Source: a phage
Length of the DNA: 64,000 bases
Sequence record: PZ452612.1
Reading direction: 5' to 3' (one strand)
Of the stretch, positions 6,796 to 25,461 are shown piece after piece. Below the pieces are notes generated by a model that saw only the letters and a list, made by a program, of their open reading frames with translations, ran no database searches and had not been told where the DNA came from. The first letter of the stretch is position 1. Every line of letters starts with the position of its first letter. The position numbers and the translations under genes were made by a program.

Positions 6796-6807
6796 TTAAT
6801 TTCCTTT

Positions 6808-6823
6808 AGACGAGTTATTGTCT
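6808..6823 (-). promoter_or_regulatory. Putative gp43 translational operator hairpin (stem AGAC/GUCU, 8-nt loop AAUAACUC) just 5' of the gene 43 Shine-Dalgarno
   Basis: mRNA reads AGACAAUAACUCGUCU AAAGGAAAUUAA AUG. The loop sequence and position match the T4-type gp43 autoregulatory operator architecture. Confidence 0.5.
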
Positions 6824-6853
6824 TTTGTTTGTTGATGAACTTATTATACTCCA

Positions 6854-6873
6854 AATGGGACCGAAGTCCCATT
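6854..6873 (-). other. Stable hairpin (AUGGGAC-UUCG-GUCCCAU) immediately after the regA stop, followed by GGAGUAUAAU
   Basis: Perfect 7-bp inverted repeat with a UUCG tetraloop seen in sequence; no long U-tract follows. Confidence 0.4.
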
Positions 6874-6876
6874 GCT

Positions 6877-7245
6877 TTAATTACCAATTGTATATTTTGC
6901 TTTCAAAGTCCAGTCATCTTTCTGTTTAAAAGAGATAACACGGAAGTTATTAGTCAGGCCAAACAGATCTTCACGAGCAGAGTCTTCAATAACAATCAAT
7001 CCCCAGTCTTCAAGCAACTGAGCAATCGAATCACGTCGCTGATAGTCTTCACCATCAATATCAACCTGACGTCCGTCCATACGCAGCATTTCTTTAAAGT
7101 GGACGATGTAATATTTACCTTGCTTTTGGAGGATATGACAAGACTGGTAAAGGACTTTATCCTTGTTATTAGCGATGCCCATACGGGTTAGAGTCTCTTT
7201 GACTTTCAGAAAATCTTCAGGGTTCTTCAATTTAATTTCAATCAT
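6877..7245 (-). CDS. regA: Translational repressor RegA
   Basis: MIEIKLKNPEDFLKVKETLTRMGIANNKDKVLYQSCHILQK... matches T4 RegA as recalled; syntenic between 62 and 43. Start taken at the internal Met. Confidence 0.85.
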   Translation of the reverse strand: MIEIKLKNPEDFLKVKETLTRMGIANNKDKVLYQSCHILQKQGKYYIVHFKEMLRMDGRQVDIDGEDYQRRDSIAQLLEDWGLIVIEDSAREDLFGLTNNFRVISFKQKDDWTLKAKYTIGN

Positions 7246-7247
7246 TT

Positions 7248-7811
7248 TTACCATTCCAATGCTAATTTTTTAAATTGTTTTTGTTCTTTTACGTTTTTAG
7301 TAACTTCTTTGAGAAATTCATCAGTGACCATGGCCTTCAGTTCTTTAAGGACTATTGGCAGCTTGTTATTTTTTTCAAGGAGCCGCTTATACTCGGTAGC
7401 ATCATTCATGTTGATTGTGTAATGTTTCATCAACAGTTTGATAACTAGTAACTCTGAAGTGTCTTCGACTAGTTTAGCCCATTTAGAGAATCGACGACCA
7501 CGCGGAATTGCCGCCATCATATAGTTGAAGTGCGCTTCATCACTTAATTCAGAACCGACTAAGTTCATCATGTAAACGGCTGGCATACATTCTGGAAACT
7601 GGGATAACGAGTTCTCAACCATAAATTTTGAGTAGTCGACCTGAGCAATTGACATAGATTTCTTTTCATTAATAGCATTAATGATTTTAAAGAATTCATT
7701 CTCAGGTTTTTCTTTAAACATATCAGCACATTTTTGAATCGCATCAGCGTCATTAGACTTCCATGCAATTTGGTGCTCGTTAAGCTGGACGTCATCATCG
7801 AATAAGTTCAT
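7248..7811 (-). CDS. 62: Clamp loader small subunit gp62
   Basis: 187 aa, same length as T4 gp62; position between 44 and regA. Confidence 0.8.
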
Positions 7812-7812
7812 A

Positions 7813-8775
7813 TTATTTCCAAGTCAGTTCACAGGTCAGTTGAAGAAGCATATACATAACATGTAATTCAATATTACTTGCTAGTCCATGAAACTTATTA
7901 TTTTCGCCTGCAATTTCGTAAAGCGAAATAATACTTTTACCAGGTGCAACTTGGTCATAACATTCTGAAACTAATTTATCTATGAACCATGAATAATCTG
8001 CAGCATATTTTGGAGCTAATGCACGAAGTTGTTTGATATCTTTGTTCTTCATTGCTTCGATAACATCAGAGACTGTGCCACGGTCATTAGTTACGATAGA
8101 CAGAATACCTGCATCAAGAACACCTTTAGACGAGTACTGGTCTAATTGGCCAATTGTACGACGAAAGTCTGGGAAGTTCTTTTTAACCAGAGCTGCAACA
8201 ACTTTCATATCAGCGATTTCGATATTTTCGTTCTTACAGATTTCAACCATACGATGAATCATTTTCTTCATCATCGAGATTTTATCTTCTTCAGTCGGAC
8301 GACCGAATTCTATAACTCGACAACGGCTACGTAATGGTTCAATAATTCCATCAATGTTGTTGGCAGTAATAATAATAGAACAGTTACTAGAGAATTCTTC
8401 CATAAACGTACGAAGGTGACGTTGTGATTCGGCGAGGCCACTACGGTCAAATTCATCAATAACAATAACTTTAGGCTTGCCTTCCATTGAGACTGAACGA
8501 GCGAATGCAGTTAACGGACCACGCACAAAATCAATCTTACAATCAGAACCGTTGACGAACATCATTTCGGCATTGATATCATTACATAATGCTTTTGCTA
8601 CGGTTGTTTTACCTGTACCAGGAGAAGGAGAGTGCAAAATAATATGAGGAAGTTTTCCTTTAGATACTAAAGACTTGAATGTTTCATGGTCATACGCAGG
8701 CAGAATACATTCGTCAATGGAAGAAGGACGATATTTCTGTTCTAGAATGTGTTCTTTGGAATTGATAGTAATCAT
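7813..8775 (-). CDS. 44: Clamp loader large subunit gp44 (AAA+ ATPase)
   Basis: 320 aa; Walker [11 protein letters not shown], Walker [12 protein letters not shown] motif. Confidence 0.9.
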
Positions 8776-8850
8776 GTAATTTTCCTCATTATCATTAAAC
8801 TGGAGGATTTCTCCTCCATAATCGTATCACATTAAACGTAAATCTTTGTC

Positions 8851-9537
8851 TTAGAAGTCGTGAGTAGAATCGGCTTCCATTGCAATAACATAACTTACTT
8901 GAGAGCTTTCAAACTTGGCTGCAACTTTATCACCAGCTCCCCACAACATTACTTTATAGTTACCTGGCTGGATTTTCATATTAGCCATATTGATTACAAA
9001 GTTAAAGTTATTAGAACCATCATAATCGGTAAGAGTCAAAGAATACTTAGGACGAGTTAGTCCGGAATCTTCAACTTTATTGTAACCGTTGATAACAATT
9101 TTACCATCTTTATTTGTAATAGCAATTGTATCAATCTGGAGACCACGTGAAACTCGAAGCAATTGTTGAAGGTCTTCAGCTTTAATTTCAGTAATCACAG
9201 AAGCCACCGGGAATTGAATTGGCTTATTAGGAAAAACAATGGTGCTCTTGTCGGCAGCAGGCCAATAAACTGTGGAACGTGTATCTGCAATTTTAATATT
9301 GCCATCGGTGTGCATTGAAATTTCAGCATCATCAGACACTAGACTCAAAATGCTTAAGAAGCTATTCAAATCATAAAGTGCTACGTCAAAATCAATTTCA
9401 TCGGAGATATTTGCTTCTGCATAAGTGGTGCCATTAACTGCACGGGTCATAATAAATTTACCTTGACTCAGCAGAATGCCGGAGTTAATAGAGGCAAAGT
9501 TTTTCAGAATAGCGATAGTATCTTTAGACAGTTTCAT
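8851..9537 (-). CDS. 45: Sliding clamp gp45
   Basis: MKLSKDTIAILKNFASINSGILL...EADSTHDF matches T4 gp45 as recalled; start at internal Met. Confidence 0.9.
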   Translation of the reverse strand: MKLSKDTIAILKNFASINSGILLSQGKFIMTRAVNGTTYAEANISDEIDFDVALYDLNSFLSILSLVSDDAEISMHTDGNIKIADTRSTVYWPAADKSTIVFPNKPIQFPVASVITEIKAEDLQQLLRVSRGLQIDTIAITNKDGKIVINGYNKVEDSGLTRPKYSLTLTDYDGSNNFNFVINMANMKIQPGNYKVMLWGAGDKVAAKFESSQVSYVIAMEADSTHDF

Positions 9538-9579
9538 TTTATTTCCTTTCAAGACAATTCAAAGTTTATAACAAATTTA

Positions 9580-9996
9580 TTATGCAGCAACCATCTGCTT
9601 TTTAATAGCTTCAGGCAGTGATTCAATATATTCTGGAATTTTAGAAGCAACAATTTCGCCAGCTGCAATTAATTGTTCATCGGCATCAACACAGTAGAAA
9701 TCTTCCAGACGCTCAGAACCATCTTTATCAAGAACGATTTTTCCACCTGCTTCAATAGAATCTTTATAGTGCTTACGCATCAGATGAATCCACATATCAG
9801 ATACATCGTTATCAATAAAACCATAAATCATAAAACGAGTTTCTTGTGGCAAAGATTGAAGCTTTTTAGCACTTGCGTCATCACAATGCAGGACCCATGC
9901 TTTACGAACACGATTATGGTTATGCGGGTTAGCGTCAGTACGGATAGAAGTAACTTTCAGATCAGCAGCAGTGAAACCTTTAGCAGTAGTAAACAT
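9580..9996 (-). CDS. rpbA: RNA polymerase-binding protein RpbA (by synteny)
   Basis: 138 aa ORF between 45 and 46, the T4 rpbA slot. Confidence 0.55.
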   Translation of the reverse strand: MFTTAKGFTAADLKVTSIRTDANPHNHNRVRKAWVLHCDDASAKKLQSLPQETRFMIYGFIDNDVSDMWIHLMRKHYKDSIEAGGKIVLDKDGSERLEDFYCVDADEQLIAAGEIVASKIPEYIESLPEAIKKQMVAA

Positions 9997-10008
9997 ATTA
10001 TTTCTCTC

Positions 10009-10209
10009 TTATTCGTAGAAGTCAGTAACTGTCCATGCGGAATTGCGATTAGACATTATTTTATTATACTCATCTTTAAAAGCAGATTTGAGCATTTGTT
10101 CAGTAACAATATGTTCTTCACCTGAAAACGTATTGGTCAAAACATATTTTTTAATTTCAGGGACAACAAGAAGATGTTGTCCGGTTGAATACTCCATGTT
10201 GTTCTCCAT
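10009..10209 (-). CDS. Hypothetical small protein
   Basis: 66 aa ORF between 46 and rpbA. Confidence 0.4.
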   Translation of the reverse strand: MENNMEYSTGQHLLVVPEIKKYVLTNTFSGEEHIVTEQMLKSAFKDEYNKIMSNRNSAWTVTDFYE

Positions 10210-10251
10210 TTAATTTGATGTGGTCATTATAACCACATCGTGTTAAAGCGT

Positions 10252-11940
10252 TTATGAAACAGTCATTACAGTAAATCGTCCAACTTTGCTCATTTGAAGA
10301 TGTTGTCCATAACGTTGAGGGTCATGGTCTCTATGAGAAATAATGAACACGTTAGTATTTTGTAAACTTCCAAGAATGGTATCTATAGCCTTAACAGCCT
10401 CAGAATCTACAGCGCCGTCAAAAACTTCGTCAAGAATAAGAGTGTTGATTTTAACACCAGAGACCTTTTCAGCAATATCTCGCCATGTAAACAACAATGC
10501 GATATCGATACGTGCCTTTTCACCTTGACTAAATGAAGCATAACTAAAATCTTCACGACCACGTGATTTTATAGATTCATTGAATTCTTCATCAATAGAA
10601 AACACGTAATCGGCTTCCATGATTTTAAGATAATGGTTAATCTGCTTGTTGAACAGAGGCACATATTTTTTAATGATAGCACCTTTAATACCAGAATCTT
10701 TTAACATATCTGTGATAATACCACGATGGTATTTTTCAAGAACGATATCCGATTTTGTTTTAATGATTTTATCAAGTTCTTTTTGAAGCAAAGCTATCTC
10801 ATCGGCATGGTCGATAAATTCCGCCGAGGCTTGTTCTATTGCAGCTTTAACTTTCTTAGCTTTATCAATAGTGGCAATCATTGCTTGTTTCTTGGTACGA
10901 ATATCAGATGCAAGGTCCTGCTTAGTCTTAACATTAGCTCTATATTCGTCCACTAGGACACTCAGATTATCTCTGTGGCAGGTAAGTTGCTCGAATGAGT
11001 GATTACATTCATGAAGCTTATCGGTAATCTTAGAGACAATAGGGTCACCCTGGTGCAACTGTGATGCGCAAGTAGGACATGTACCGCCATCATGATACAT
11101 CTTAATAACTTTGTTATATGAGTCAATTTTAGATTTAATCAAGAATGCTTCTTGTCCTATCTTGTTGAATGCCTCAGTAGGGTCTTCGTCAAGAACGATA
11201 TTAAGTAGACGCTCGTTAGCTTCTTCGATTTCTGCTTTTAATGACCGAGCTTCTTTGGCTAGGTCGTCGTACATATTCTGTAGACGCGCTACATTATCAC
11301 CAGATAATTTCTTTTGACGTTCGATGTTCTCATTATAAATCTTAATTTGTTGGATAATACCATCTTTCTTGGCATCGAGAACTTGTCCCTGGGAATTAAG
11401 TTCTCGAACTTGAGACTTATTGATTTTATCCATTTCAGCGAGTGTGCCAACTTCTAATAAGTCTTCAACAAGCTTTCTGCGAGCAGGGGTGCTAAGAGCC
11501 ATGAAAGGGGTATACCCTGCCGTCCCAAGCACAACGATTTGTTTAAAAGACGCGTATGACATTCCGATGCTACGTTCAAATTCTTCTTGGAAGTCACGAC
11601 TGCTGGCAGATTCATCAAGACGAACACCGTCAACGGAGATTTCGAAAATATTGGGCTTTTGGCCACGTTTAATGAAGTATTTTTTACCATCGAATTCCAT
11701 CCAAAGCTCAACTAAGAGCTCTTTCTTGTTCGTGCTATTAATGATTTGTCCTTTCTTAACATCACGAAATGGTTTACCGAAAAGTCCGAAAGTGATGGCT
11801 TCTAACATCGTAGATTTACCACCGCCGTTTTTACCAGTGATTAATGTCTTTTGGACTTTATCTAATTGGATATCAATAGGATTCCCACCTACCGACATGA
11901 TGTTTTGATAACGAACACGATTTAATTTAAATGATTTCAT
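10252..11940 (-). CDS. 46: Recombination endonuclease subunit gp46 (SbcC/Rad50-like ATPase)
   Basis: 562 aa; Walker A GKNGGGKST, long coiled-coil middle, C-terminal LILDEVFD signature region. Confidence 0.9.
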   Translation of the reverse strand: MKSFKLNRVRYQNIMSVGGNPIDIQLDKVQKTLITGKNGGGKSTMLEAITFGLFGKPFRDVKKGQIINSTNKKELLVELWMEFDGKKYFIKRGQKPNIFEISVDGVRLDESASSRDFQEEFERSIGMSYASFKQIVVLGTAGYTPFMALSTPARRKLVEDLLEVGTLAEMDKINKSQVRELNSQGQVLDAKKDGIIQQIKIYNENIERQKKLSGDNVARLQNMYDDLAKEARSLKAEIEEANERLLNIVLDEDPTEAFNKIGQEAFLIKSKIDSYNKVIKMYHDGGTCPTCASQLHQGDPIVSKITDKLHECNHSFEQLTCHRDNLSVLVDEYRANVKTKQDLASDIRTKKQAMIATIDKAKKVKAAIEQASAEFIDHADEIALLQKELDKIIKTKSDIVLEKYHRGIITDMLKDSGIKGAIIKKYVPLFNKQINHYLKIMEADYVFSIDEEFNESIKSRGREDFSYASFSQGEKARIDIALLFTWRDIAEKVSGVKINTLILDEVFDGAVDSEAVKAIDTILGSLQNTNVFIISHRDHDPQRYGQHLQMSKVGRFTVMTVS

Positions 11941-12185
11941 ATGTATTCTCTTCGAATGAAGTCCTCTACATATTTTAACATGTCATCTCTATCAGCAAAA
12001 TACTCATCTAGTTCTGCATACATAACAACACCCGGTGCGTACTCACAGGTAACATACATTGTTCCAAAGAAACGAGGAGTTGTCTCCTCATAATTCTCAG
12101 TCCATTCAACGATACCAATATAACCGTCACCAATACTAAATTCGTGACGATGGATTTCATAGTCAGTCTTCGTCATTATACGCAT
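11937..12185 (-). CDS. Hypothetical protein (46.1-like position)
   Basis: 82 aa ORF between 47 and 46, start overlapping. Confidence 0.45.
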   Translation of the reverse strand: MRIMTKTDYEIHRHEFSIGDGYIGIVEWTENYEETTPRFFGTMYVTCEYAPGVVMYAELDEYFADRDDMLKYVEDFIRREYI

Positions 12186-12420
12186 CCTCGATACATGCTT
12201 CAGCCATTTTAAGAATAGAGCCAGGAGTATCGTTGTCCATTATATTAAAGCTAAATTCAATAGCCCAGTCGGTACAGACATGAACGGCTTTAACTTCATT
12301 GCCTTCAACGCGTAATGGCTCAATCCAATACTTGATAGTGTTCTCGAATCCATCATCATCTTTAACGTCTATTTCAACTTCAAGCCCAAGCCCGGCATTG
12401 TTAAATTCATCTAAAGTCAT
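12163..12420 (-). CDS. Hypothetical acidic protein (46.2-like position)
   Basis: 85 aa ORF, overlaps the gp47 stop. Confidence 0.45.
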   Translation of the reverse strand: MTLDEFNNAGLGLEVEIDVKDDDGFENTIKYWIEPLRVEGNEVKAVHVCTDWAIEFSFNIMDNDTPGSILKMAEACIEDAYNDED

Positions 12421-13436
12421 TGTGTTGCCTCAATATAAAGTTCGTTAGAATATTTGACCAGCGCTTCTCTGTCTTCGTCTGAGATATCTGGAATCGCGTC
12501 AATATATTCTTTAATGATATCTTGAAGTGATTTAATCTCGATTTCCTGGTCGTCATCAGATTCAACACTGTTATCAACTTTAGAAACCATACGAAGAGAG
12601 TGAACTACTTTTTCAAGTTCAGATTCAAACTTAGTCAACTCTGAATCAATTTCTGATACTATAACACGTACGGCTAGATTAGTATAATCAGAATAATTGA
12701 TTTTGCCTTTAAACGGATAAGTGATTCTTCGATGCCATGTTGTTTCATTAGGAATAAATTCCATACGTTCAACATCAGTGTCAAATACCCAGAATCCACG
12801 CGGGTCGTTCTCATCACCTGCAGTAAGGGTCCACGGTGTTCCAATATATTTGACGTTAGCAGCTTCAGAGATTGTGTGGAAGTGGCCTGACCAGACTTGT
12901 TTATAAGTCTTTAAGAAATCAGGTTCAAGCCCATGAGACTTCATCCCTTTATAGAAATAAAAGCCGTTCAGTTCCCAGTGCCCAACACAATACGCAGCAG
13001 AAGAAGTCTTGATGTGCTCTAAGATTTCACCTGTATTTTCTTCACACATCCATGGAACGATATCAATCAGACATCCGTCAAAATCTACAGTAGTCGGATG
13101 CTCATAAATAGTAAAGTTTTCAAATTGAGTTAACAATTCAGAAACAGTGTTAGGTGTTATTGTATTCTTAAACGCCATGTCATGGTTTCCTATCGTGACA
13201 TGAACGTGAATGCCTGCTTTAGAAATCATATCAACGATTTCACGATTGAATTCCATTGTACGATGTGTTATTGCTTTACGGACGTCAAACCAATCACCGT
13301 ACTGAATCCAAGTTTTAATCCCGTGTTTCTTAGAGTATTCAATTGCTTGTCGAATACCATCACGTTGAATATCTTGAACCCATGGGTCGTCTTGTTTGAC
13401 TCCGATATGGAAGTCGCCTAAGTGCAAAATTTTCAT
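12417..13436 (-). CDS. 47: Recombination endonuclease subunit gp47 (SbcD/Mre11-like phosphoesterase)
   Basis: MKILHLGDFHIG...GNHD...GHFH metallophosphatase motifs; 339 aa as in T4 gp47. Confidence 0.9.
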   Translation of the reverse strand: MKILHLGDFHIGVKQDDPWVQDIQRDGIRQAIEYSKKHGIKTWIQYGDWFDVRKAITHRTMEFNREIVDMISKAGIHVHVTIGNHDMAFKNTITPNTVSELLTQFENFTIYEHPTTVDFDGCLIDIVPWMCEENTGEILEHIKTSSAAYCVGHWELNGFYFYKGMKSHGLEPDFLKTYKQVWSGHFHTISEAANVKYIGTPWTLTAGDENDPRGFWVFDTDVERMEFIPNETTWHRRITYPFKGKINYSDYTNLAVRVIVSEIDSELTKFESELEKVVHSLRMVSKVDNSVESDDDQEIEIKSLQDIIKEYIDAIPDISDEDREALVKYSNELYIEATQ

Positions 13437-13478
13437 ATTATTTCCTCATTAGTTAATTCATTTTATCATCCGTTTATA

Positions 13479-13507
13479 AAGCAAAAAAGGAACTCCGAAG
13501 AGTTCCT
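13479..13507 (-). terminator. Rho-independent terminator (AGGAACUC-UUCG-GAGUUCCU followed by UUUUUUGC)
   Basis: Perfect 8-bp stem, UUCG loop and a 6-U tract read on the minus strand, directly after the stop of the small ORF 13506..13679. Confidence 0.6.
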
Positions 13508-13679
13508 ATCCACATAGTACACCGTACAGAGGCTCATTTGAACTTTTAAATCGAATTGGCTTGTACGTAATAGTTCCTTCGGCTTTAGCTTTATCATAAG
13601 ACTCTTTAAAACGTCTCATTCTTTCTGCTTTGCCTTTACGGATTTTATCGAAATTTTCAGAAGTCGGGATGTTCGTCAT
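13506..13679 (-). CDS. Small basic protein (57 aa)
   Basis: Manual translation MTNIPTSENFDKIRKGKAERMRRFKESYDKAKAEGTITYKPIRFKSSNEPLYGVLCG; GAGG Shine-Dalgarno upstream; terminator follows. Confidence 0.35.
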   Translation of the reverse strand: MTNIPTSENFDKIRKGKAERMRRFKESYDKAKAEGTITYKPIRFKSSNEPLYGVLCG

Positions 13680-13718
13680 GCATAAGCACCTCTCAGAAAA
13701 TGCCTAAATCAATTTCTC

Positions 13719-13940
13719 TCATCGTTTCCACCATTTCTTAACTTGAAATGAATCGGCCCACACGAGTTGTTTTGGGTCTGCCTTTACAATAGGCGGACAA
13801 ATTTCTGTAATAGAACCGTCGTGATATTCCTTTTCAGAAATTTTAACACAAAGAGGACCTCCCAATTTAAGGGTGAACCCTGCGTTCAGCTTCAGACGTT
13901 TAAACTTTGTTTGAACTAGCGCCATTAATGATGTCCTCAA
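13719..13940 (-). CDS. Hypothetical protein
   Basis: 73 aa track ORF in the 55-47 interval. Confidence 0.3.
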   Translation of the reverse strand: MRTSLMALVQTKFKRLKLNAGFTLKLGGPLCVKISEKEYHDGSITEICPPIVKADPKQLVWADSFQVKKWWKR

Positions 13941-14223
13941 TAGCCTGACGAGTAGTAACCCACTGGATTTTAATTAACTTGTCATTGTATGGTTGTCGTA
14001 GAATATCCCGAGATTTCTTAATAGCATATTCGTAAGCTTCGAAGTTGTTTTGAATTGCTGCTTCTTGAGCATGAGCATAAAGACGGTTTAGTTCAAAACG
14101 ATTCTTTTTAAGAATCTTTTCGGATTTTTTACGTGCTTCAGCTTCATTTTTCTTTTGGATTTCTTGTAGCATTTTAGCTACTGCATCTTCTGCTTCTTTA
14201 TTTTCAATAATCTCGGTAGTCAT
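13900..14223 (-). CDS. Hypothetical protein
   Basis: 107 aa ORF, charged, coiled-coil-like. Confidence 0.4.
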   Translation of the reverse strand: MTTEIIENKEAEDAVAKMLQEIQKKNEAEARKKSEKILKKNRFELNRLYAHAQEAAIQNNFEAYEYAIKKSRDILRQPYNDKLIKIQWVTTRQAIEDIINGASSNKV

Positions 14224-15547: not shown

Positions 15548-15915
15548 TTTGCCGCCTTAACAATTTTCAGGTCAACGAATTTTTTCTTACGTTGATTTTT
15601 CATACGACGGATAGTCTTTTCAGAGATTTCATGTTTCTGATAAGCTTTAGATTCAACACCAAATGCAGCAACGTCAAATTCAGAAAGAATATATTGTACT
15701 AGAATTTCACGAATAGAATTACGTCCAATTTTCTGGTCGTGTTTTTGCATGATTTCATAAAGACGGAATTCCCACGCATCAAGAACTTGAGGAGTAACAA
15801 TATTGCCAGATTCCAGAAGAGCAACAACTTTATCGAAAGCGAAAGAATTAACTACGTTTTTGATTTTAGTAGACATATTATTTTCCTCGGTTATTTTATT
15901 ATCCAACGAGGGCAT
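15544..15915 (-). CDS. Hypothetical early protein
   Basis: 123 aa ORF. Confidence 0.4.
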   Translation of the reverse strand: MPSLDNKITEENNMSTKIKNVVNSFAFDKVVALLESGNIVTPQVLDAWEFRLYEIMQKHDQKIGRNSIREILVQYILSEFDVAAFGVESKAYQKHEISEKTIRRMKNQRKKKFVDLKIVKAAK

Positions 15916-15942
15916 TATACTCTGCTCTCAAGAGTCTGTACA

Positions 15943-17804: not shown

Positions 17805-18087
17805 GAGAAATAATTCCTTGGTAAGCCCAATAAGGAGGATTAACAGAATCCTCGCCAGAGTTTTCTTCAGGAAAATAAACCTGGATAACAAATCCAGATG
17901 CATCAAAGGTAAAATAAACCGTAGGCAGTTCACCTAACAATTCGGCACGAGCATTAATTTCTTCGAGATCTCGTTCACGTCCAGCCCAAAAACTAGGATT
18001 TAGATTACATTCGTAAAAATAATAGTCATTACCGAACATATCAAACCCCTTCCAACTCTCTACCACATACCGCTCAAAACTAATCAT
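17770..18087 (-). CDS. Hypothetical protein
   Basis: 105 aa ORF. Confidence 0.4.
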   Translation of the reverse strand: MISFERYVVESWKGFDMFGNDYYFYECNLNPSFWAGRERDLEEINARAELLGELPTVYFTFDASGFVIQVYFPEENSGEDSVNPPYWAYQGIISRGTKLELKEQD

Positions 18088-18089
18088 AA

Positions 18090-18305
18090 TTAAGCCTTTT
18101 TATCAAGAACAGAATTCAGTTTATTAGTAATTTTGTCCAAACGTTCATTGAATTCGCTGGAGGATAAACCCTTTTCCGGAGAAATTAAACTAATCACGAA
18201 AAATACACCAGTAAAAGGAATAAGAAAAATAGCTCCAACTGCCATAAACAAAAAGAACGTTACAGTTGTAAGAAAATCAGCTAAACCTTTACGAAATTTA
18301 TACAT
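18090..18305 (-). CDS. Small membrane protein
   Basis: 71 aa with a hydrophobic N-terminal segment (FLFMAVGAIFLIPFTGVFFVISLI). Confidence 0.45.
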   Translation of the reverse strand: MYKFRKGLADFLTTVTFFLFMAVGAIFLIPFTGVFFVISLISPEKGLSSSEFNERLDKITNKLNSVLDKKA

Positions 18306-18416
18306 ATTTACCCTTAATTAATTAACCAAGCATTGATAAGCAAACCATATTGCGAATAAAATTCTGGACCAAAATGAAAAATCATATCATTTATAGTATC
18401 CATAATGTAGTTCAAT

Positions 18417-18887
18417 TTAATCATGTTTCCACACCCCATTGGTATTCGACCAAAGTCGCTGATTATCTGATCCTCGCCACAGTTTTTTGGTCGGAAGATT
18501 TTTCTCATACTTCCCATCAATAATAACATCAACATATTTAAGCATTTCTAGTTGTTTAATATCTTCAAACTTATATCCTGTCCACAACCAAATGCTTTTA
18601 TTGGGATAAATATTTTTTACTGTTTGAACAATGCAATGAACAACATCTCTATTATCAGGATAGAGAGGGTCGCCTCCGGTTATAGTCAATCCTTCTATAT
18701 AATCATTATTCAAACATTCAATTAATTGTTCTAGTGTCTCTCCAGTGAATGGAGCACCATTTCTAGCGTTCCATGTTGATTTATTATAACACCCTTCACA
18801 TTTATGCAAACAACCTGTAACGAAAAGAACGACCCTGCAACCAGGGCCATTCACAAAATCGCAAGGATAAAATCTATCATAATTCAT
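18417..18887 (-). CDS. nrdG: Anaerobic ribonucleotide reductase activating protein NrdG (radical SAM)
   Basis: CLHKCEGCYN is a CX3CX2C radical-SAM motif; 156 aa; immediately downstream of nrdD. Confidence 0.9.
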   Translation of the reverse strand: MNYDRFYPCDFVNGPGCRVVLFVTGCLHKCEGCYNKSTWNARNGAPFTGETLEQLIECLNNDYIEGLTITGGDPLYPDNRDVVHCIVQTVKNIYPNKSIWLWTGYKFEDIKQLEMLKYVDVIIDGKYEKNLPTKKLWRGSDNQRLWSNTNGVWKHD

Positions 18888-20701
18888 TGGTGTTTAACCC
18901 TATGCATGATTTCTTTATTTTTACCGAGATTAAATCCGCGTTCGTTCGGATTTCCCAAATAACCGCATGTTCTTCTTATGGTGTTCATCTTTTTAGGATC
19001 AGTTTCTCCGCAAACTGAACAAACAAATCCGTTTTCAGTAGGAGTCATTTCATGGGTACTTCCACATGTAAAACATTTATCTACTGGCATATTAACACCA
19101 AAATAATCTAAATGTTGTGCAGCATAATCCCAGACAGCCTCAAGTCCCTTTAAATTGTTTTTCATATCTGGAAGTTCAACATAAGAAATGTGACCACCTG
19201 TCGCAATGAAATGATATGGCGCTTCACGAGAAATCTTTTCAAACGGAGTAATATTTTCTTCTACTGAAACATGGAAACTATTAGTGTACCAGCCTTTATC
19301 TGTAACATCTTTTACACTTCCATATTTTTCTGTGTCTAGTTTACAGAAACGATAACAAAGGTTTTCAGCAGGTGTAGAATACAAGCTAAAAGCAAACCCA
19401 GTTCTTTCAGTCCATTGTTTAAGAAGAGCATTCATTTTAGTTAAAATTTCTTGTCCAATATCACGTCCGACAAGAATATTCAATTCGTGGATACCAATGT
19501 ATCCTAAAGACACTGAACTTCTACCGTTTTTAAATAACTCAATTATGTCGTCATCAGGTTTAAGACGAACCCCGAATGCACCTTCTTGGTAAAGAATAGG
19601 AGCAACAGTCGCTTTAACTCCTTTTAAGGAACTAATTCTACACATCAAGGCTTCAAAACACAGATCCATACGTTCATTGAATAATTCAACAAATTTCTGT
19701 TCATTGAACTGTGTTCCAATATAAGAATCTAATGCGATACGAGGAAGATTCAGTGTTACAACACCGAGATTATTACGTCCATCAAGAATTTCATTACCAG
19801 TCGAATCTTTCCATACGCTCAAGAAACTACGGCAACCCATTGGAGAAACTGGAACTGAAGAACCAGTAATAGCTTTATTATTCTTAGCTGAAATAATATC
19901 AGGATACATTCTTTTGCTTGCGCACTCTAGAGCAAGCTGCTTAATATCATAGTTCGGATCGTCTTTATAAAGATTAACACCTTCTTCAACGAACATAACA
20001 AGCTTAGGGAAAATAGGAGTTATTCCATCACGACCAAGACCTTTAATGCGGTTTTTAAGAATTGCCTTCTGAATCATTCGTTCAGTCCAATCGGCCCCCG
20101 TACCAAATGTAATTGTTACAAAAGGCGTTTGTCCGTTTGAACTAAAGAGAGTATTTACTTCATATTCATAAGCTTGGAACGCGTCATAGACATCTTTTTC
20201 TGTTTTGGATTGAGCATAATTCAACGCATCAGCGATTTGCCATTTTTCCGCATCTTCAACATGTTTAGCGTATGTGCGTTTAACATAAGGAGAAAGAACT
20301 TTATCGACATTTGCAAATGTAGTTCCGCCATACTGATGTGAAGCAACTTGTGCAGTAATTTGTGCCATAATTGCAGTAGCAACACCAATCGATTTAGGCG
20401 TTTCAATTTGAGCATTGCCTAATTTAAATCCGTTCTCAAGCATCCCCTTTAAATCGACTAAACAACAATTAGTAAACGGAAGAGCAGGAGAATAATCAAT
20501 ATCATGCATGTGGATAATTCCACTTTCATGCGCATTCATAATAAAAGACGGGACCATATTTTTGGCAATGTGCTTAGACACAATACCAGCCATAAGGTCC
20601 CGTTGAGTTGGAAAAACACGAGAATCTTTATTAGCATTCTCGTTTAAAAGGTCTTTATTAGTTTTATGAATTAATCCTTCAATTTCTTTTTCAATTTTCA
20701 T
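18884..20701 (-). CDS. nrdD: Anaerobic ribonucleoside-triphosphate reductase NrdD
   Basis: 605 aa; C-terminal glycyl-radical motif RRTCGYLG and a C-terminal Cys cluster. Confidence 0.95.
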   Translation of the reverse strand: MKIEKEIEGLIHKTNKDLLNENANKDSRVFPTQRDLMAGIVSKHIAKNMVPSFIMNAHESGIIHMHDIDYSPALPFTNCCLVDLKGMLENGFKLGNAQIETPKSIGVATAIMAQITAQVASHQYGGTTFANVDKVLSPYVKRTYAKHVEDAEKWQIADALNYAQSKTEKDVYDAFQAYEYEVNTLFSSNGQTPFVTITFGTGADWTERMIQKAILKNRIKGLGRDGITPIFPKLVMFVEEGVNLYKDDPNYDIKQLALECASKRMYPDIISAKNNKAITGSSVPVSPMGCRSFLSVWKDSTGNEILDGRNNLGVVTLNLPRIALDSYIGTQFNEQKFVELFNERMDLCFEALMCRISSLKGVKATVAPILYQEGAFGVRLKPDDDIIELFKNGRSSVSLGYIGIHELNILVGRDIGQEILTKMNALLKQWTERTGFAFSLYSTPAENLCYRFCKLDTEKYGSVKDVTDKGWYTNSFHVSVEENITPFEKISREAPYHFIATGGHISYVELPDMKNNLKGLEAVWDYAAQHLDYFGVNMPVDKCFTCGSTHEMTPTENGFVCSVCGETDPKKMNTIRRTCGYLGNPNERGFNLGKNKEIMHRVKHQ

Positions 20702-21171
20702 TTTAAACTCTTTCTAAGCTGCTTTTTGAATGAAGCTATTAATTGTGTTTTAGTATCAGATTCATTATATTCAAATCCTCTTTGAAGCATCTCAGTCATC
20801 ATTTCCTCTTTACCTAGTCTTGAGAACTCTTTAGTTTTGTCTGGAACAAAATTAGGATGGATATTATTATCAGAATAATCTTGTTTCAAATAAGCAAGAA
20901 GAGCTTCAAGCCATTCGAGGTAATCAACGTTTTGACCTTTAAGACCAGAACGGTTGAACTTATGCTTCATTTGACCTTCTGCTGCATTGCACAGGTTACA
21001 TAGTAAACCACGAACCTTACCAGCTTTTGGCCCGTTTAATTCATGGTCGTGGTCAAGATGGTTACCTTGAACATCAGGGTCTAATTCACGGTGGCAAATA
21101 GGACACTTACCATTCTGTGCATCATAAAATTTTTGTTTTTCTTCTTTATATTTTGCGCCTGATAATAACAT
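20698..21171 (-). CDS. 49: Endonuclease VII (Holliday junction resolvase) gp49
   Basis: MLLSGAKYKEEKQKFYDAQNGKCPICHRELD...HLDHDHELNG matches T4 endo VII as recalled; 157 aa. Confidence 0.9.
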   Translation of the reverse strand: MLLSGAKYKEEKQKFYDAQNGKCPICHRELDPDVQGNHLDHDHELNGPKAGKVRGLLCNLCNAAEGQMKHKFNRSGLKGQNVDYLEWLEALLAYLKQDYSDNNIHPNFVPDKTKEFSRLGKEEMMTEMLQRGFEYNESDTKTQLIASFKKQLRKSLK

Positions 21172-21221
21172 GATAAACCCTTACCTTAAATAGATAAGGG
21201 TATTTATAATTTAGTAAACGT

Positions 21222-21389
21222 TATAAAAGTCTCGATGGAAACGCTTATACTGACGAATCATTCTTTTAGTAGGACGAGTTTCTGAAATAATTGAAGTCCT
21301 CATATTTGGATTGTTTGGGGCCCAATCATAATAAATTTCCAGGATTTTTGCCCATTTTTTCTTTCGCCATAAAATAGTTCAGTTTTCAT
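21222..21389 (-). pseudogene. Frameshifted, degenerate copy of the small basic-protein gene at 21814..21984
   Basis: Two reading frames together reproduce the paralog: MKTELFYGERKNGQKSWKF... in one frame and ...DWAPNNPNMRTSIISETRPTKRMIRQYKRF in another, versus the intact ...LLYRLLKNGKHDWYLLIKTDPNFFSGQPFTVRPTKRQLRKAKRSHRNFYREY. DNA similarity includes a shared TATAAAAGT..CGATG..TTTAGTAGGACGA stretch. Confidence 0.3.
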
Positions 21390-21398
21390 AATAAGCCC

Positions 21399-21812
21399 TT
21401 AACTTAAACGTCTTTCTAAATATTCAATGTATTCCGCGGCGGCTTGCATCAGATTACCTTCATAACCGTCATTATTTTCTTGACCGGCTAATTTAGCTAA
21501 AGCATAAGAAATACGTTCACCTTCGAATTCGCCAAGACCACCATCACAAACTACTTGGTCAATTTCTTCGAGTTCATCTATTGAATGGGATTCCCAGAAG
21601 CACCAAAGAGAAGTATCACGGTCATAGATGCAAAGTTTCTCACCTGTGTTCAACATCACTTCGATAATGCCATGGTCGCCATAACCATCTTCGGTAGTAG
21701 TACCAATTACCTTGATGATTGTTCCTTTCTTTAATTCAGGAAACTTGACTTGTAGTTCTTCATCTTCTTTAACAATCTTGAACCATTTACCGCGAGTTTC
21801 AGAAATATTCAT
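21399..21812 (-). CDS. Hypothetical protein (pin-like position)
   Basis: Track ORF 21399..21950 trimmed to the internal Met MNISETRGKWFKIV..., which abuts the upstream gene. Sits between 49 and nrdC where T4 has pin; no sequence match claimed. Confidence 0.4.
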   Translation of the reverse strand: MNISETRGKWFKIVKEDEELQVKFPELKKGTIIKVIGTTTEDGYGDHGIIEVMLNTGEKLCIYDRDTSLWCFWESHSIDELEEIDQVVCDGGLGEFEGERISYALAKLAGQENNDGYEGNLMQAAAEYIEYLERRLS

Positions 21813-21813
21813 A

Positions 21814-21984
21814 TCAATATTCTCTATAAAAGTTACGATGAGAACGTTTAGCTTTGCGAAGCTGACGTTTAGTAGGACGAACTGTAAATGGTTGTCCAGA
21901 GAAAAAATTCGGATCGGTTTTAATAAGCAAATACCAATCATGTTTGCCATTTTTTAATAAACGGTACAATAATTTAACTTGCAT
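21814..21984 (-). CDS. Small basic protein (56 aa)
   Basis: MQVKLLYRLLKNGKHDWYLLIKTDPNFFSGQPFTVRPTKRQLRKAKRSHRNFYREY; has a degenerate paralog about 600 bp downstream. Confidence 0.4.
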   Translation of the reverse strand: MQVKLLYRLLKNGKHDWYLLIKTDPNFFSGQPFTVRPTKRQLRKAKRSHRNFYREY

Positions 21985-22112
21985 AATAATCTCTTCCCAT
22001 TTCCATATCAATTAATTCATTTATTGAAGGTTCATCATAACACGTTTCTTCGTCGTTGTAAACTGTTTCGACGTCTGGCTCGACCGTCTCCCATCGAGCC
22101 GAATACCACGGT

Positions 22113-22469
22113 TTAACCGCGGAGTTTATTGATCTCTTCATAATCAACCCAGGATTCTAGCCCAGATGGCAAATCAGATTCAATTTCCCAAAGAAGCTCT
22201 TCAATGGCTTGCAGGCGATTATATTCTTCAACGGTAATGGTAACCATTGGTGCAACCGGTTCTGCCTTTTTAACAATCATATCGTTCATCAGGATGTAAA
22301 GGTCATCACGAACGACAGTGTCGTTCCAACCCCATGATTTGGCTTCATAAGCTAATGATGAAGGGAGCACATTTAAAACTTCAATAATAGTTGGAGCATC
22401 AGGACCAAGTTCATTGGCACAAACTTCGTATACATCTTGGAAATCTTTAAGATTTAATGAATATGTCAT
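22113..22469 (-). CDS. Hypothetical acidic protein
   Basis: 118 aa ORF. Confidence 0.45.
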   Translation of the reverse strand: MTYSLNLKDFQDVYEVCANELGPDAPTIIEVLNVLPSSLAYEAKSWGWNDTVVRDDLYILMNDMIVKKAEPVAPMVTITVEEYNRLQAIEELLWEIESDLPSGLESWVDYEEINKLRG

Positions 22470-22729
22470 TTAAAATATTCTCGTAGTTGGTCAAAGCCAC
22501 CGATCGAAGTTCCATCAGGAGCAAACACTTGAGGCATAGTCAATCCAACTTGTGATTCACGTCCAAGCTTAACCAGAAGCTCAGCAATTTTCTCATCATC
22601 AAAAACACCTTTTTCTGGCATAACGTTAATGAATTCGAATGGTTGTTTCTTAACAGTCAGCAATCGTTTCGCATTATCACAATAAATGCATTTATGAATA
22701 GTAGAGTCATACCCGTACACTTTAAACAT
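22466..22729 (-). CDS. nrdC: Thioredoxin/glutaredoxin NrdC
   Basis: MFKVYGYDSTIHKCIYCDNAKRLLTVKKQPFEFINVMPEKGVFDDEKIAELL... matches T4 NrdC as recalled; CIYC redox motif. Confidence 0.85.
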   Translation of the reverse strand: MFKVYGYDSTIHKCIYCDNAKRLLTVKKQPFEFINVMPEKGVFDDEKIAELLVKLGRESQVGLTMPQVFAPDGTSIGGFDQLREYFK

Positions 22730-23135
22730 TATTTTTCCTTTCATCGATTAAATATGCAACGCCAAATACAATACATGTAATAAAACCTGTGATACAGATA
22801 GAAACCAACAACACTGTACCAAAGAACCAAATCAGGTTATCTTTAGTAGTTTGTTTTATATCCATCTCACGAATTTCTATAGCTATAGTATCACCTTTAT
22901 TCAGAAGCGTATAAAACGACGGTGATACATGCCTGTCAAAAACTCGTCCTTGCTCATCTTTATAGACTGCAATAAATTCTAATTTAGAATATTTTCCTGT
23001 AGATTGACCTGAGATTAATTCCACTACCTCCACAGGAATTACTTTAGTTTCCATGTAAGTATTCTGACTGTTCCAAATGAATGGAATAATAGCAAAAACT
23101 AAAGCTGCGATAAAACAACGAAGGCTATATCTCAT
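22722..23135 (-). CDS. Membrane protein
   Basis: 137 aa with N- and C-terminal hydrophobic segments. Confidence 0.45.
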   Translation of the reverse strand: MRYSLRCFIAALVFAIIPFIWNSQNTYMETKVIPVEVVELISGQSTGKYSKLEFIAVYKDEQGRVFDRHVSPSFYTLLNKGDTIAIEIREMDIKQTTKDNLIWFFGTVLLVSICITGFITCIVFGVAYLIDERKNNV

Positions 23136-23440
23136 TATAATGTTCTCTCAAATTTGTGGAAGCATTTACGGCATTTCAATTTCAAGTTATCACTGGTCCA
23201 GTTAACCAGTTGGACTTGGATAGTTCCACATTCCGGACATGGATGTTTTGCTGCCGATTTGGCAGCATTTTCACGTCGTTCAACCATTTTCATGATTTCG
23301 TTCCATGCTGGAGGAACGAACTCTTCTTCACCGTGGATTTTATCTCGCTGAACAAATTCAATCTTTGAACTATCGTCAATAAACTTAACCAAGCGGTGAT
23401 TAGTGTTCATATCAATATCCTCTAAAAGACGTAGTTTCAT
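23135..23440 (-). CDS. Zinc-ribbon protein
   Basis: CPECG...CRKC C2C2 arrangement in a 101 aa ORF. Confidence 0.5.
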   Translation of the reverse strand: MKLRLLEDIDMNTNHRLVKFIDDSSKIEFVQRDKIHGEEEFVPPAWNEIMKMVERRENAAKSAAKHPCPECGTIQVQLVNWTSDNLKLKCRKCFHKFERTL

Positions 23441-24384
23441 TATAACACCTCAATGGCATTTCGTAAACCATCCGCTTTCGCATTCAGAGCTTTTAACGAT
23501 TTAGTCTGTTCTTTAATCTGGGCTTCGACTTCTTTCAGACGAGATTTGAGATATTCGCGTTCTTCGGCCATGATATCGACCTTTTCTGCTTTAGGTTCTT
23601 TAATAGGCTTAAACACATTAGGGTTCTTCAGTTTAATTTTAATTCGAGAACTGAATAACATTGAACCGTTATCTTCGGTTTCGTCGAACATTTCAACAAC
23701 ATCCATAGTCTGTAACATCATGCGAAGTTTATAAGACAGAGAACGAATGGTTTTGTTGCGCTTATTAATTTCTTCGGCTTTCATGGTACCGAGATTACGT
23801 GAGTAATAATAAGGAACCTGGATATCAATTGATAACGATGCGTTACCATTACCAGTTGGTTTGAATACTGCAGTAACCCAATCTTTAACATGAACTTTAT
23901 TTGTACGACCATCGCCGCCTGTGAATAATTTACGTGAATGTTTAAAAAGCATATTCACTTGGTTATTGAATTCACAAGCAAATTTATCAGCAAATTTAGT
24001 TTCAGGAATGGTGGAGAACCAATCAGCTAAATGAGTCTTTTTAACATCATTAACAATAGTGAATTCAACCAAATCGGTTTTAGATGTCACAGATTTAATA
24101 AAGCTCGGTTTCATAAAGTTTTTAATGTTATCACGAGCCACAGTAGAAGATAATAAACGAGAACGTTTGAACCATTGAAGCAACGTCCCTAATGAATGAG
24201 AATATGCATTTTGAGTATCTTTACAGATATGATTTTCTTGGCCTGTGTATGTACCAAAATCGCGAAGAATACCACTTACTACATCTCGGTGTGGAACATC
24301 AAATCCTAATGAACCAGAAGCACGTTGGGCATGAACGTTAGCGATAAGACCTGCAAAGTATTCAATGTAATGTGAACGTGTCAT
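23440..24384 (-). CDS. Hypothetical protein with C-terminal coiled coil
   Basis: 314 aa; C-terminus REYLKSRLKEVEAQIKEQTKSLKALNAKADGLRNAIEVL; preceded by the GTTTAC-N18-TATAAT module at 24413..24442. Confidence 0.5.
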   Translation of the reverse strand: MTRSHYIEYFAGLIANVHAQRASGSLGFDVPHRDVVSGILRDFGTYTGQENHICKDTQNAYSHSLGTLLQWFKRSRLLSSTVARDNIKNFMKPSFIKSVTSKTDLVEFTIVNDVKKTHLADWFSTIPETKFADKFACEFNNQVNMLFKHSRKLFTGGDGRTNKVHVKDWVTAVFKPTGNGNASLSIDIQVPYYYSRNLGTMKAEEINKRNKTIRSLSYKLRMMLQTMDVVEMFDETEDNGSMLFSSRIKIKLKNPNVFKPIKEPKAEKVDIMAEEREYLKSRLKEVEAQIKEQTKSLKALNAKADGLRNAIEVL

Positions 24385-24412
24385 AATATTTTCCTCTCGT
24401 TAAGATAGATTC

Positions 24413-24442
24413 ATTATACTCCAACCATCCTTGGTTGTAAAC
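24413..24442 (-). promoter_or_regulatory. Early-type promoter: GTTTAC -35, 18-bp spacer containing hairpin CAACCA-AGGA-TGGTTG, TATAAT -10
   Basis: Minus strand reads GTTTACAACCAAGGATGGTTGGAGTATAAT, 28 nt upstream of the ATG at 24384. Confidence 0.55.
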
Positions 24443-24446
24443 TATT

Positions 24447-25406
24447 TTATGATTTTAACGCATTCATTGCGTTAAAAAGTTTAGAATACTGCAACTGGAG
24501 ATTCGTTACAACACTTTGAGCATCACGAAGCTTAGCTTGTGCTTTGTCAAGTTCAACAGACAGTTGGTCCATAGTGGCCTTGATTTGATTGTAATGGTAA
24601 TCTTCGGCCGGAAGAAGGTCATTAGAAACATTTAGTTTTACTGCAGACAGTTTGCACACATTTGGCAAACCTTTAAACATTGATTTACCCGAAGTAGAAT
24701 AAGCACTTAGGACTTCGGCCTGTTCAATTGGGGTCCCAGTAAGCGATGCTTCAAACAATGCATTTTCCTTTTTAAGATTTTGATAATATTCGGAGTCTTT
24801 GTGCCACCATGGCGCAGGAACCTTTTTACCAATAGATACACGAGCCTGGATAGCGATATGGCCCTTATTCTTGATAAGGTCGATAATATTAAGCTCACGA
24901 GAATAAATCGCTTTAATCTGGTGGATATTATCACCTAAAACTTCCAACGCTTGGTGGAATACACGAGCGACATTATCATTCTTAGGTTTATACGTAAGAG
25001 TGAACTCATTCTCACTGATAACCATGATTTCCAACTTATCGTAAGTATATTTCAAATGTTTCATGTTAATTGCTTGAGGACGAATACGAGAAGCAATGGC
25101 CATCAGATTGTTAAGGTTATTCCGGAACTGCTTAGCGAAATATTGTCCTTCACCGCCAATACAAAAATTACGAAGTTTCTGTTTGGCCAATAAACGGCTG
25201 AACTCACCATTTTTAATGAACTCTTTAACGGGTGTGTTAGTAACGCATTCAAATTGAGTAAACTTACGAGAAGTAATCCCATAATATGAACAGATTTCCT
25301 CAATCTCTTCAGGAGTCTTTACAGGCATACGGATAGGATTAGGTCCTGGAGTATATGCGTTCGAGGTAAATTCTTTGATAAGTTCTCTACGTGTAATAAA
25401 AGCCAT
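24447..25406 (-). CDS. Hypothetical protein with C-terminal coiled coil
   Basis: 319 aa; C-terminus ...MDQLSVELDKAQAKLRDAQSVVTNLQLQYSKLFNAMNALKS; its 5' region contains the same 27-nt module. Confidence 0.5.
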   Translation of the reverse strand: MAFITRRELIKEFTSNAYTPGPNPIRMPVKTPEEIEEICSYYGITSRKFTQFECVTNTPVKEFIKNGEFSRLLAKQKLRNFCIGGEGQYFAKQFRNNLNNLMAIASRIRPQAINMKHLKYTYDKLEIMVISENEFTLTYKPKNDNVARVFHQALEVLGDNIHQIKAIYSRELNIIDLIKNKGHIAIQARVSIGKKVPAPWWHKDSEYYQNLKKENALFEASLTGTPIEQAEVLSAYSTSGKSMFKGLPNVCKLSAVKLNVSNDLLPAEDYHYNQIKATMDQLSVELDKAQAKLRDAQSVVTNLQLQYSKLFNAMNALKS

Positions 25407-25461
25407 TTTATATTCCTCATGTTGAAAAATTTATTATACTCCAACCATCCTTGGTTGTACA

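Follow-up and report, generated by a model that had tools for sequence, protein, structure and literature searches.

Early promoter stem-loops (PeSLs) were described by Arbiol et al. 2010 in phages RB49 and phi1 (PMC2839356) and by Comeau et al. 2014 in PST/T4 and nt-1/KVP40 (PMC4122927), and provide the closest counterpart to the elements considered here. Their published anatomy runs from a stop codon through an AT-rich segment and strong boxes of sigma-70 type, with a stem-loop lying mostly between the -35 box and the -10 box, or over the -10, to a Shine-Dalgarno (SD) sequence and an ATG (PMC2839356; PMC4122927). PeSLs are found preferentially beside accessory open reading frames (ORFs); when copies recombine, ORFs are cut out or brought in, and one crossover has been mapped to within the loop (PMC2839356, PMC4122927). 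Versions carrying a MotA box, termed PmSLs, were described by Comeau et al. 2014 (PMC4122927). The present analysis concerns three elements on the minus strand of a 64,000-nucleotide stretch of phage DNA (sequence record PZ452612.1; 'the window' refers throughout to this whole stretch), in which a hairpin is joined to a promoter: site 1 lies between regA and gene 43, which encodes the DNA polymerase, and sites 2 and 3 lie in the nrdC accessory region. On sequence grounds, sites 2 and 3 belong to the published PeSL class, and site 1 is essentially the known P43 junction of T4. All three are very probably composite intergenic cassettes, in which a hairpin belonging to the 3' end of the upstream message is combined with a promoter used by host RNA polymerase for the downstream gene.

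The source phage is a Mosigvirus, an RB69-like relative of T4, and E. coli O157 typing phages 3, 6 and 13 match the window at 100% identity. Genes on the minus strand of the window are prereplicative, and genes for a MotA-like protein and an AsiA-like anti-sigma factor are annotated in the same genome. The layout common to all three sites comprises an upstream stop codon, a hairpin, a -10 hexamer and a downstream SD and ATG. An earlier note on this DNA had reported three minus-strand elements, each with a tetraloop hairpin and TATAAT, and reading the strand confirms all of them, with the small correction that its hairpin ranges at sites 2 and 3, right as to position, missed the first stem base by a trivial 1 nt. 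The 11-mer that it saw at each site, TTGGAGTATAA, occurs exactly three times, always on the minus strand and always with a tetraloop hairpin before it, against 0.09 occurrences expected and none of 100 shuffles with at least three. Sites 2 and 3 have in addition an exact 27-mer in common, TACAACCAAGGATGGTTGGAGTATAAT, in copies 1020 bp apart, so that these are effectively two independent sequence families rather than three hits. The note was also correct that, within the window, a GTTTAC -35 accompanies only the copy at 24413. Its suggestion that the sites are promoters is supported by sigma-70 matches of 11/12 at site 2 and 10/12 at site 3 (the best and third-best in a consensus scan of the 20-kb region), by the RB69 orthologs of these two sites, which are the early promoters Pe:51019 (score 27.8) and Pe:52042 (score 18.2) predicted by hidden Markov model (HMM; Nolan et al. 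2006), and, for site 1, by P43 of T4. A single promoter class, which it had also entertained, has to be given up: site 1 is, by T4 orthology, a MotA-type middle promoter lacking a -35, and sites 2 and 3 read as early promoters with a different family of hairpin.

The shorter word GGAGTATAAT was rejected as an enriched word, since with one mismatch allowed it shows no enrichment (nine occurrences against 5.8 expected). For the most part it reflects one promoter subfamily, RGAG-TATAAT, whose signature spans -16 to -7, because sibling promoters carry GGAG, AGAG, GGGG, TGGG or GTAG before TATAAT. As RNA, site 1 folds at -11.7 kcal/mol (z-score -3.2) and sites 2 and 3 at -6.9 kcal/mol (z-scores -1.8 and -2.3). 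A curated RNA family was rejected as the identity of the hairpins: Rfam 15 covariance models returned nothing at E values up to 1 on either strand of window positions 6000-27000.

Predicted early promoters and probable exchange cassettes of the nrdC region

The site 2 cassette occupies 24382..24449 on the minus strand: the stop TAA (24449-24447) is followed by the -35 GTTTAC (24442-24437), the hairpin CAACCA-AGGA-UGGUUG (24437-24422), GAG with TATAAT (24418-24413), the SD GAGAGG and the ATG at 24384 of an nrdC.3-like gene. The site 3 cassette, at 25404..25464 on the same strand, opens with the stop TGA (25464-25462), which is overlapped by the -35-like ATGTAC (25462-25457), and continues with the same hairpin (25457-25442), TATAAT (25438-25433), the SD GAGG and the ATG at 25406 of an nrdC.5-like gene. 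At both, the stop lies 4-10 nt ahead of the hairpin, and the SD and ATG 20-30 nt past the -10. The GTTTAC of site 2 sits at -36 to -31, as in the T4 early consensus, and sites 2 and 3 conform to the PeSL pattern of an early promoter with -35 and -10 boxes about 17 bp apart, as site 1, which has no -35, does not. Sites 2 and 3 are therefore best read, by this consensus, as candidate sigma-70-type early promoters with an 18-bp spacer that holds the hairpin.

Between the two identical 27-bp repeats lies a minus-strand ORF of 319 amino acids (aa), nrdC.5-like and assigned to DUF7235 (24447..25406; Pfam E 7e-124). Comparison with close relatives shows that this ORF behaves as a cassette that is gained and lost. 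Phage FL31 is without exactly this ORF, and at its junction the sequence upstream of site 3 is joined, by way of one repeat only, to the sequence downstream of site 2; phage AV109, which shows the same 70% cover as FL31, probably lacks it too, and phage moha has a different cassette with different genes at this locus. A further loss is found elsewhere in phage JK42, which is without a motB-like ORF that lies between two other copies of the element. The hairpin left at its junction, CAACCA-AGGA-UGGAUG, is chimeric, its left arm coming from one copy and its right arm from the other, with one remaining mismatch, which places the crossover inside the CCAAGGAUGG core. Tandem gene duplication was rejected as the source of the repeat at sites 2 and 3: the three ORFs that lie side by side there, of about 320 aa each, are mutually dissimilar, and as the downstream genes are not paralogs, the repeat is no by-product of gene duplication. 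As to the motB locus itself, three tandem motB-like ORFs follow dexA in NC_041863 (142612-144051), and the first of these (164 aa; Pfam motB, E 1e-8), the one missing in JK42, has AAGGAU-hairpin promoters on both sides.

The hairpin of sites 2 and 3 belongs to a wider family with an AAGGA(U/C) loop, written AAGGAY below. A scan for stem-AAGGAY-stem arrangements, covering 158 of the 169 kb of the genome, found seven such hairpins, all on the early strand and all within promoters, in the nrdC, dexA-motB, rnlA-upstream and 30.x accessory regions; one is an identical 30-mer ahead of a motB-like ORF, and its neighbour has CAUCCA/UGGAUG stems. Another member lies within the MotA-type middle promoter AAACGCTTT-ACCC-AAGGAC-GGGT-TATAAT (26493..26521, minus strand), whose AAGGAC-loop hairpin occupies 26512-26499. 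The T4 ortholog of this promoter is the mapped middle promoter PnrdC.7, where the whole promoter forms a palindrome, TTATACC-AAGGAT-GGTATAA, and the start at 53325 (PMC2988021) falls 7 nt past TATAAT; AAGGAY hairpins stand ahead of nrdC.3, nrdC.4 and nrdC.7 in T4.

Across 25 distinct promoter contexts the AAGGAY loop is invariant and the stems covary, seven types being seen: CAACC/GGUUG, CAUCC/GGAUG, CUUCC/GGAGG, ACCC/GGGU, AGCC/GGCU, UAUC/GAUA and CCAC/GUGG. Internal pairs other than Watson-Crick are four G.U on the sense strand and no A.C. A scan of IMG/VR for TTTACNNCCAAGGAYGG gave, among the matches listed, 13 in promoter context, every one of which pairs at both free positions (AA/TT, AT/AT or TT/AG); the roughly 108 chance matches among those listed are mostly unpaired there, and served as an internal control rather than as members of the family. 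The 30-mer itself, exact or nearly so, is found at 589 places in 216 phage records, with one to four per genome among the 40 matches listed and two to four for near-exact matches. None of these 40 overlaps a coding sequence (CDS) annotated in frame and three lie under CDS annotations; nearly all of the matches listed lie outside annotated genes, and one record labels the 30-mer a promoter. The distance from the AAGGAY core to the -10 is 0, 1, 2, 3, 6 or 7 nt among members, early and middle promoters included, and this variable register argues against both a fixed RNA polymerase contact and a cruciform.

Stem-loops accompany other promoters too, some of them placed over the -10. An early promoter of a second subfamily, GTTTAC...TGT-TATTAT-AGACCTATCA, lies at 27040-27110 on the minus strand, where an 11-bp stem, AGGUCUAUGGU/AUUAUAGACCU, spans the -10 and the whole 71-nt fold reaches -18.1 kcal/mol; several TGn-TATTAT-AGACCT promoters occur elsewhere in the genome. 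A third subfamily, TAGT(G/T)TACA(A/G)ACTCT(T/C)G(A/G)GAGCAGAGTATAATGC(C/T)C(T/C)C, is represented at 15908-15942 (minus strand) in the window and near 13692 and 154070 in NC_041863, with a stem-loop that encloses the -10 (best copy GAGAGCA...UGCUCUC); this design recurs in the T4 motB promoter, which has the RegB site GGAGUAUAAAA a short way downstream. In phage ATK47, the 11-bp 'direct repeat sequence1 posible binding site of StbAB' annotated by the depositor inside an nrdC.6-like gene (NC_055708, 121830-121840) is unrelated to these promoter repeats.

The regA-43 junction

At site 1 the regA stop codon (6879-6877, minus strand) is followed after 3 nt by the hairpin AAUGGGAC-UUCG-GUCCCAUU (6873-6854), which runs into UUUGG, one U separating it from the GGAG at 6852-6849; the -10 hexamer TATAAT (6848-6843) adjoins, and the ATG of gene 43 stands at 6795, 47 nt after TATAAT, with a predicted transcript start at about 6836-6838. 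In its sequence this is the Mosigvirus ortholog of the T4 regA-43 intergenic region, and its -10 region corresponds to that of the mapped, MotA-dependent T4 middle promoter P43. T4 has at the same place TAA-GC-AAGGGGC-UUCG-GCCCCUU-ATTTGGAGTATAAT, with a core hairpin GGGGC-UUCG-GCCCC followed by TTATTTGGAGTATAAT, and then the gp43 operator hairpin, SD and ATG. The P43 start at 29933 is in the table of identified T4 middle promoters (Hinton 2010, PMC2988021, Table 1), and base 29933 of the T4 record falls 5 nt past the orthologous TATAAT.

Conservation of the junction was followed in a sample of 80 regA loci from IMG/VR. In more than 40 T4-like phages the parts come in one order (stop, GC-rich tetraloop hairpin, T-rich tail, G-rich TATAAT, operator, SD, ATG), both where regA comes before them and where an extra, inserted ORF does. 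Such an ORF, at or overlapping the regA stop (TAATATG or TGATATG), is present between regA and the hairpin/P43 module in many T4-like phages; the hairpin thus travels with gene 43 and not with regA. The loop is UUCG in most, and UACG, UCCG, GAAA or UUAC in others. Six of the seven stem pairs change on both sides, none of 500 shuffles reaches the covariation score, and 100% of cells are paired, a percentage inflated by the choice of each segment as the best local hairpin. The distance from hairpin to -10 varies from 5 to about 21 nt, and where it is long a TGCTAT box lies 11-12 bp upstream of the -10: such variability indicates that the hairpin is a separate module rather than an element of the spacer. 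We read it as an RNA structure at the upstream message's end, with a U-rich tail of variable quality.

The -10 of site 1, TATAAT at 6848-6843, agrees with the sigma-70 pattern TAnnnT. A candidate MotA box was sought by counting the register by hand against (a/t)(a/t)(a/t)TGCTT(t/c)A, expected 11-13 bp upstream of the -10. The register obtained, TGGGACTTCG (6862..6871, minus strand; -35 to -26), lies over the hairpin loop with its CTT-C 13 bp upstream of the -10 and the CTT itself at -30 to -28, and is a weak match to the consensus, confined to CTTC together with the ACTT variant known from T4 P46 (PMC2988021). The GAAA, UACG or UCCG loops of relatives, or their separate TGCTAT box, argue against the loop of site 1 being a MotA box in general, and a MotA-box role for the CTT of the UUCG loop is unproven.

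As a terminator, the site 1 hairpin has a good stem of 8 bp with a UUCG loop but a tail of UUUGGAGU; its orthologs have three to five U residues after the GC core. TransTerm predictions in RB69 do not list it. It could be a weak intrinsic terminator or a structure that protects a 3' end. Tuerk et al. 1988 reportedly found that extra-stable C(UUCG)G hairpins between T4 cistrons act as intrinsic terminators or stabilise 3' ends. C(UUCG)G hairpins of T4 are also mentioned in PMC1702504. Genome-wide, about 20 UUCG hairpins lie on the early strand and seven on the other: the C(UUCG)G hairpin at 13507-13488 (minus strand) is a clear terminator by the T run after it, another near 54760 (about 54750-54800, plus strand) is followed by the late-promoter-like TATAAATA, and a further one lies at about 61190-61230 (plus strand).

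The translational operator hairpin of gp43, AGACAAUAACUCGUCU (6823-6808, minus strand), of the 16-nt RB69 type, lies downstream of the site 1 promoter and ahead of the gene 43 SD; the published description of the T4 and RB69 operators (PMC3014915) matches its 16-base size and the shared AAUAAC loop region. It is conserved across T4-like loci with compensatory stem changes and sits in the 5' leader made from the site 1 promoter. The site 1 hairpin was rejected as the operator, having a UUCG loop and standing some 60 nt ahead of the ATG; that role belongs to the separate hairpin at 6823-6808.

What the hairpins may do

In the composite-cassette explanation, RNA polymerase would start some 5-7 nt past TATAAT, as has been shown for the T4 orthologs P43 and PnrdC.7, so that messages initiated at these promoters would be without the hairpin. 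Transcripts reading through from upstream would hold it right past the stop codon, where its most likely function would be that of an attenuator and a barrier to 3' exonucleases, a role suggested by the covariation, the G.U pairs, the stability of the tetraloops and, at site 1, a U-rich tail. Some RNA-level role on read-through transcripts is thus likely. At site 1 it is reasonable to propose attenuation or a block to 3' exonucleases, given the GC-rich stem, UUCG loop and U-rich tail. Homologous exchange between repeat copies of 27-30 bp in turn deletes or inserts the intervening ORF, as comparative genomics of FL31 and JK42 shows. The earlier note's alternative of an RNA stability or processing element was partly right: hairpins placed 4-10 nt after an upstream stop and varying in the manner of RNA agree with it, and the sites are promoters as well.

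It is worth setting out what weighs against this explanation. The AAGGAY hairpins fold weakly (-6.9 kcal/mol) and are followed by no U tract, so that the terminator function measured for one GC-rich RB49 PeSL is not simply transferable and efficient termination by them is doubtful; nor does a generic role as a 3'-end barrier account for the invariant AAGGAY loop. A stable stem-loop is present in just about half of the early-type promoters of the genome, and the hairpin is thus not needed for promoter function as such; early-type promoters have a mean folding z-score of -1.0, and random windows one of -0.15 (p = 0.03). At site 1 a -35 cannot be recognised and the MotA box in TGGGACTTCG is weak at best; the site is absent from the lists of Nolan et al. 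for RB69 as an early promoter, middle promoter or terminator, and in a terminator scan of the minus strand its hairpin falls below the U-tract threshold; the selection behind its pairing percentage counts on the same side. For Mosigvirus, finally, we infer promoter activity from consensus, HMM prediction and orthology with T4.

A possible if doubtful addition, which may coexist with the composite cassette, is punctuation by RegB and S1: on read-through RNA the GGAGUAUAAUA past the hairpin would be cut between G and A, leaving the upstream message with a protective hairpin end and detaching or inactivating the downstream read-through cistron, and RNA initiated at the promoter would be immune, as it starts past the motif. 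The window encodes a homolog of RegB, the GGAG-specific endoribonuclease (34867..35319, minus strand; tblastn with T4 RegB, 77% identity over 151 aa, E 1e-81), a fact which bears on the RNA-processing hypothesis only. The GGAGUAUAAUA of sites 1 and 3 matches the model substrate from the T4 motB leader, GGAGUAUAAAA, at 10/11 positions and preserves the A residues that are conserved best (positions 6, 8 and 11), and U at position 10 is found in 3/26 cleaved sites; GGAG with UAUAAUA matches the RegB consensus GGAGRAYARAA at 9/11. According to a review, processing by RegB stimulates gp43 synthesis in T4, and the hairpin loop itself shows an unpaired GGA. Yet the siblings with AGAG, GGGG, TGGG or GTAG before TATAAT indicate that what is conserved at -16 to -13 is a G-rich sequence rather than GGA, efficient cleavage occurs at just 24/68 intergenic GGAG sites in T4 with most GGAG of middle transcripts resistant, and the stem of sites 2 and 3 ends with the first G of GGAG, which is therefore paired. 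A cut in the hairpin loop itself, at GGAU, was rejected: T4 intergenic GGAU sites are cut in 2/30 cases (55.2 and motB.2), and the motB.2 site is an SD rather than a hairpin loop. A broader proposal is that the AAGGAY hairpin with GGAGUAUAAU is a dedicated RNA punctuation signal across several T-even genera, its unpaired-GGA loop and adjacent 11-mer recruiting S1/RegB or another loop-specific factor that cuts read-through RNA at gene boundaries, such that each cassette gene is expressed from its own promoter only and each upstream message ends in a protective hairpin, with the same 10-bp core doubling as the crossover point for cassette exchange; taken as a whole this is unlikely.

Three further readings place the function elsewhere, or deny it. 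The core CCAAGGAYGG, or the AAGGAY loop, might be an operator bound by a phage or host factor such as an early-promoter shut-off factor or S1. In its favour, the loop is invariant above covarying stems in several genera and 216 genomes, spacers of ordinary sigma-70 promoters are not conserved in sequence, reviews hold that the mechanism of early-promoter shut-off is not fully understood, and GGA-containing loops recur among S1 ligands (PMC1702504); we nevertheless consider it decidedly unlikely, as there is no candidate protein, the core is present in a minority of early promoters (seven sites per genome) at a variable register to the RNA polymerase contacts, and concerted evolution through recombination between copies could keep it identical without any binding. 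That the hairpin is a functionless passenger in a duplicated promoter spread by recombination, its palindromy accidental, would fit the identity of copies within a genome over 27-30 bp, as expected of recent duplication or gene conversion, and the modest folding z-scores of sites 2 and 3. This is made highly improbable by pairing that survives two-sided stem changes, from CAACC/GGTTG to CCAC/GTGG through seven stem types, by the restriction of an internal mismatch to one element only, the recombinant junction of JK42, and by chance genomic matches to the core that do not pair. We give scant credence, lastly, to the earlier note's idea that the inverted repeat acts in DNA, extruding from the spacer as a cruciform or altering its geometry to tune promoter strength. 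The repeat does fit the spacer exactly at sites 2 and 3, beginning on the final -35 base and ending 3 bp short of the -10, and both DNA strands fold (-5.5 and -4.8 kcal/mol, z-scores of about -3.5). Stems of 5-8 bp with loops of 4-6 nt are, however, too short for stable extrusion, the core lies 0-7 nt from the -10 across members and the site 1 hairpin 5 to about 21 nt from it, the loops of site 1 are the RNA-specific stable tetraloops UNCG and GNRA, and G.U pairs are confined to the sense strand (four, with no A.C), which would leave C.A mismatches on the other.

If the composite-cassette explanation is correct, RB69-like phages wire each accessory gene as a self-contained unit that is swapped between genomes at a repeat of 10-30 bp, which helps to annotate the therapeutic and typing phages of the genus and to predict where their gene content varies. 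The natural variants, with their invariant loop, covarying stems and one mismatched recombinant junction, form a test set for the function of promoter stem-loops, and an experiment would be best spent on the conserved AAGGAY loop and the possible RegB site taken together. The picture of T4-type transcription is left unchanged: the promoter class, the P43 junction and the shuffling of cassettes have all been published already.

Comparison with described systems

A description of PeSLs for Mosigvirus or RB69 was not found in the searchable literature. The gp43 operator of T4 and RB69 resembles the site 1 hairpin in being a hairpin of the regA-43 intergenic region upstream of gene 43, but it lies downstream of the promoter and next to the SD, whereas the site 1 hairpin stands about 30 nt further upstream, outside the P43 transcript. 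With the C(UUCG)G hairpins of T4 intercistronic regions, site 1 has in common a GC-rich stem, a UUCG loop closed by C-G, a position after the stop and U residues that follow; it differs in its short U tract (AUUU), which the terminator scan did not call on the minus strand, and in being fused to a promoter rather than standing alone, and sites 2 and 3 are not of the C(UUCG)G type. The RegB/S1 site of the T4 motB leader is likewise intergenic and on early-strand RNA, and agrees with GGAGUAUAAUA at all but one of 11 positions, and a regB gene is present in the window; the candidate motif here, by contrast, lies within the -10 region of a promoter whose own RNA does not contain it.

With the T4 P43 junction, site 1 aligns base for base through the stop, C(UUCG)G hairpin, TTTGGAGTATAAT, gp43 operator, SD and ATG. 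The differences are compensatory changes in the stem (AUGGGAC/GUCCCAU in the window against AAGGGGC/GCCCCUU in T4), a hairpin 2 nt nearer the -10 in the window, which brings the CTT of its loop into the canonical MotA-box register as the ACTT variant, and an operator of the 16-nt RB69 type. Amongst the PmSLs, the promoter at 26493-26521 of the window corresponds, and site 1 does so loosely at most. Sites 2 and 3 differ from the published PeSLs in sequence, having neither the G-run/C-run of RB49 nor the AGNA...TCNT of PST, but instead a short hairpin whose AAGGAY loop is invariant and which no U tract follows. They agree with them in anatomy and in the behaviour of the copies: each fills the intergenic space from an upstream stop to a downstream SD and ATG, with sigma-70 boxes and a stem-loop in the spacer; the copies are many per genome and concentrated among accessory genes; and close relatives differ by ORF-sized insertions and deletions whose junctions fall in the repeats, among them one with its crossover in the stem-loop.

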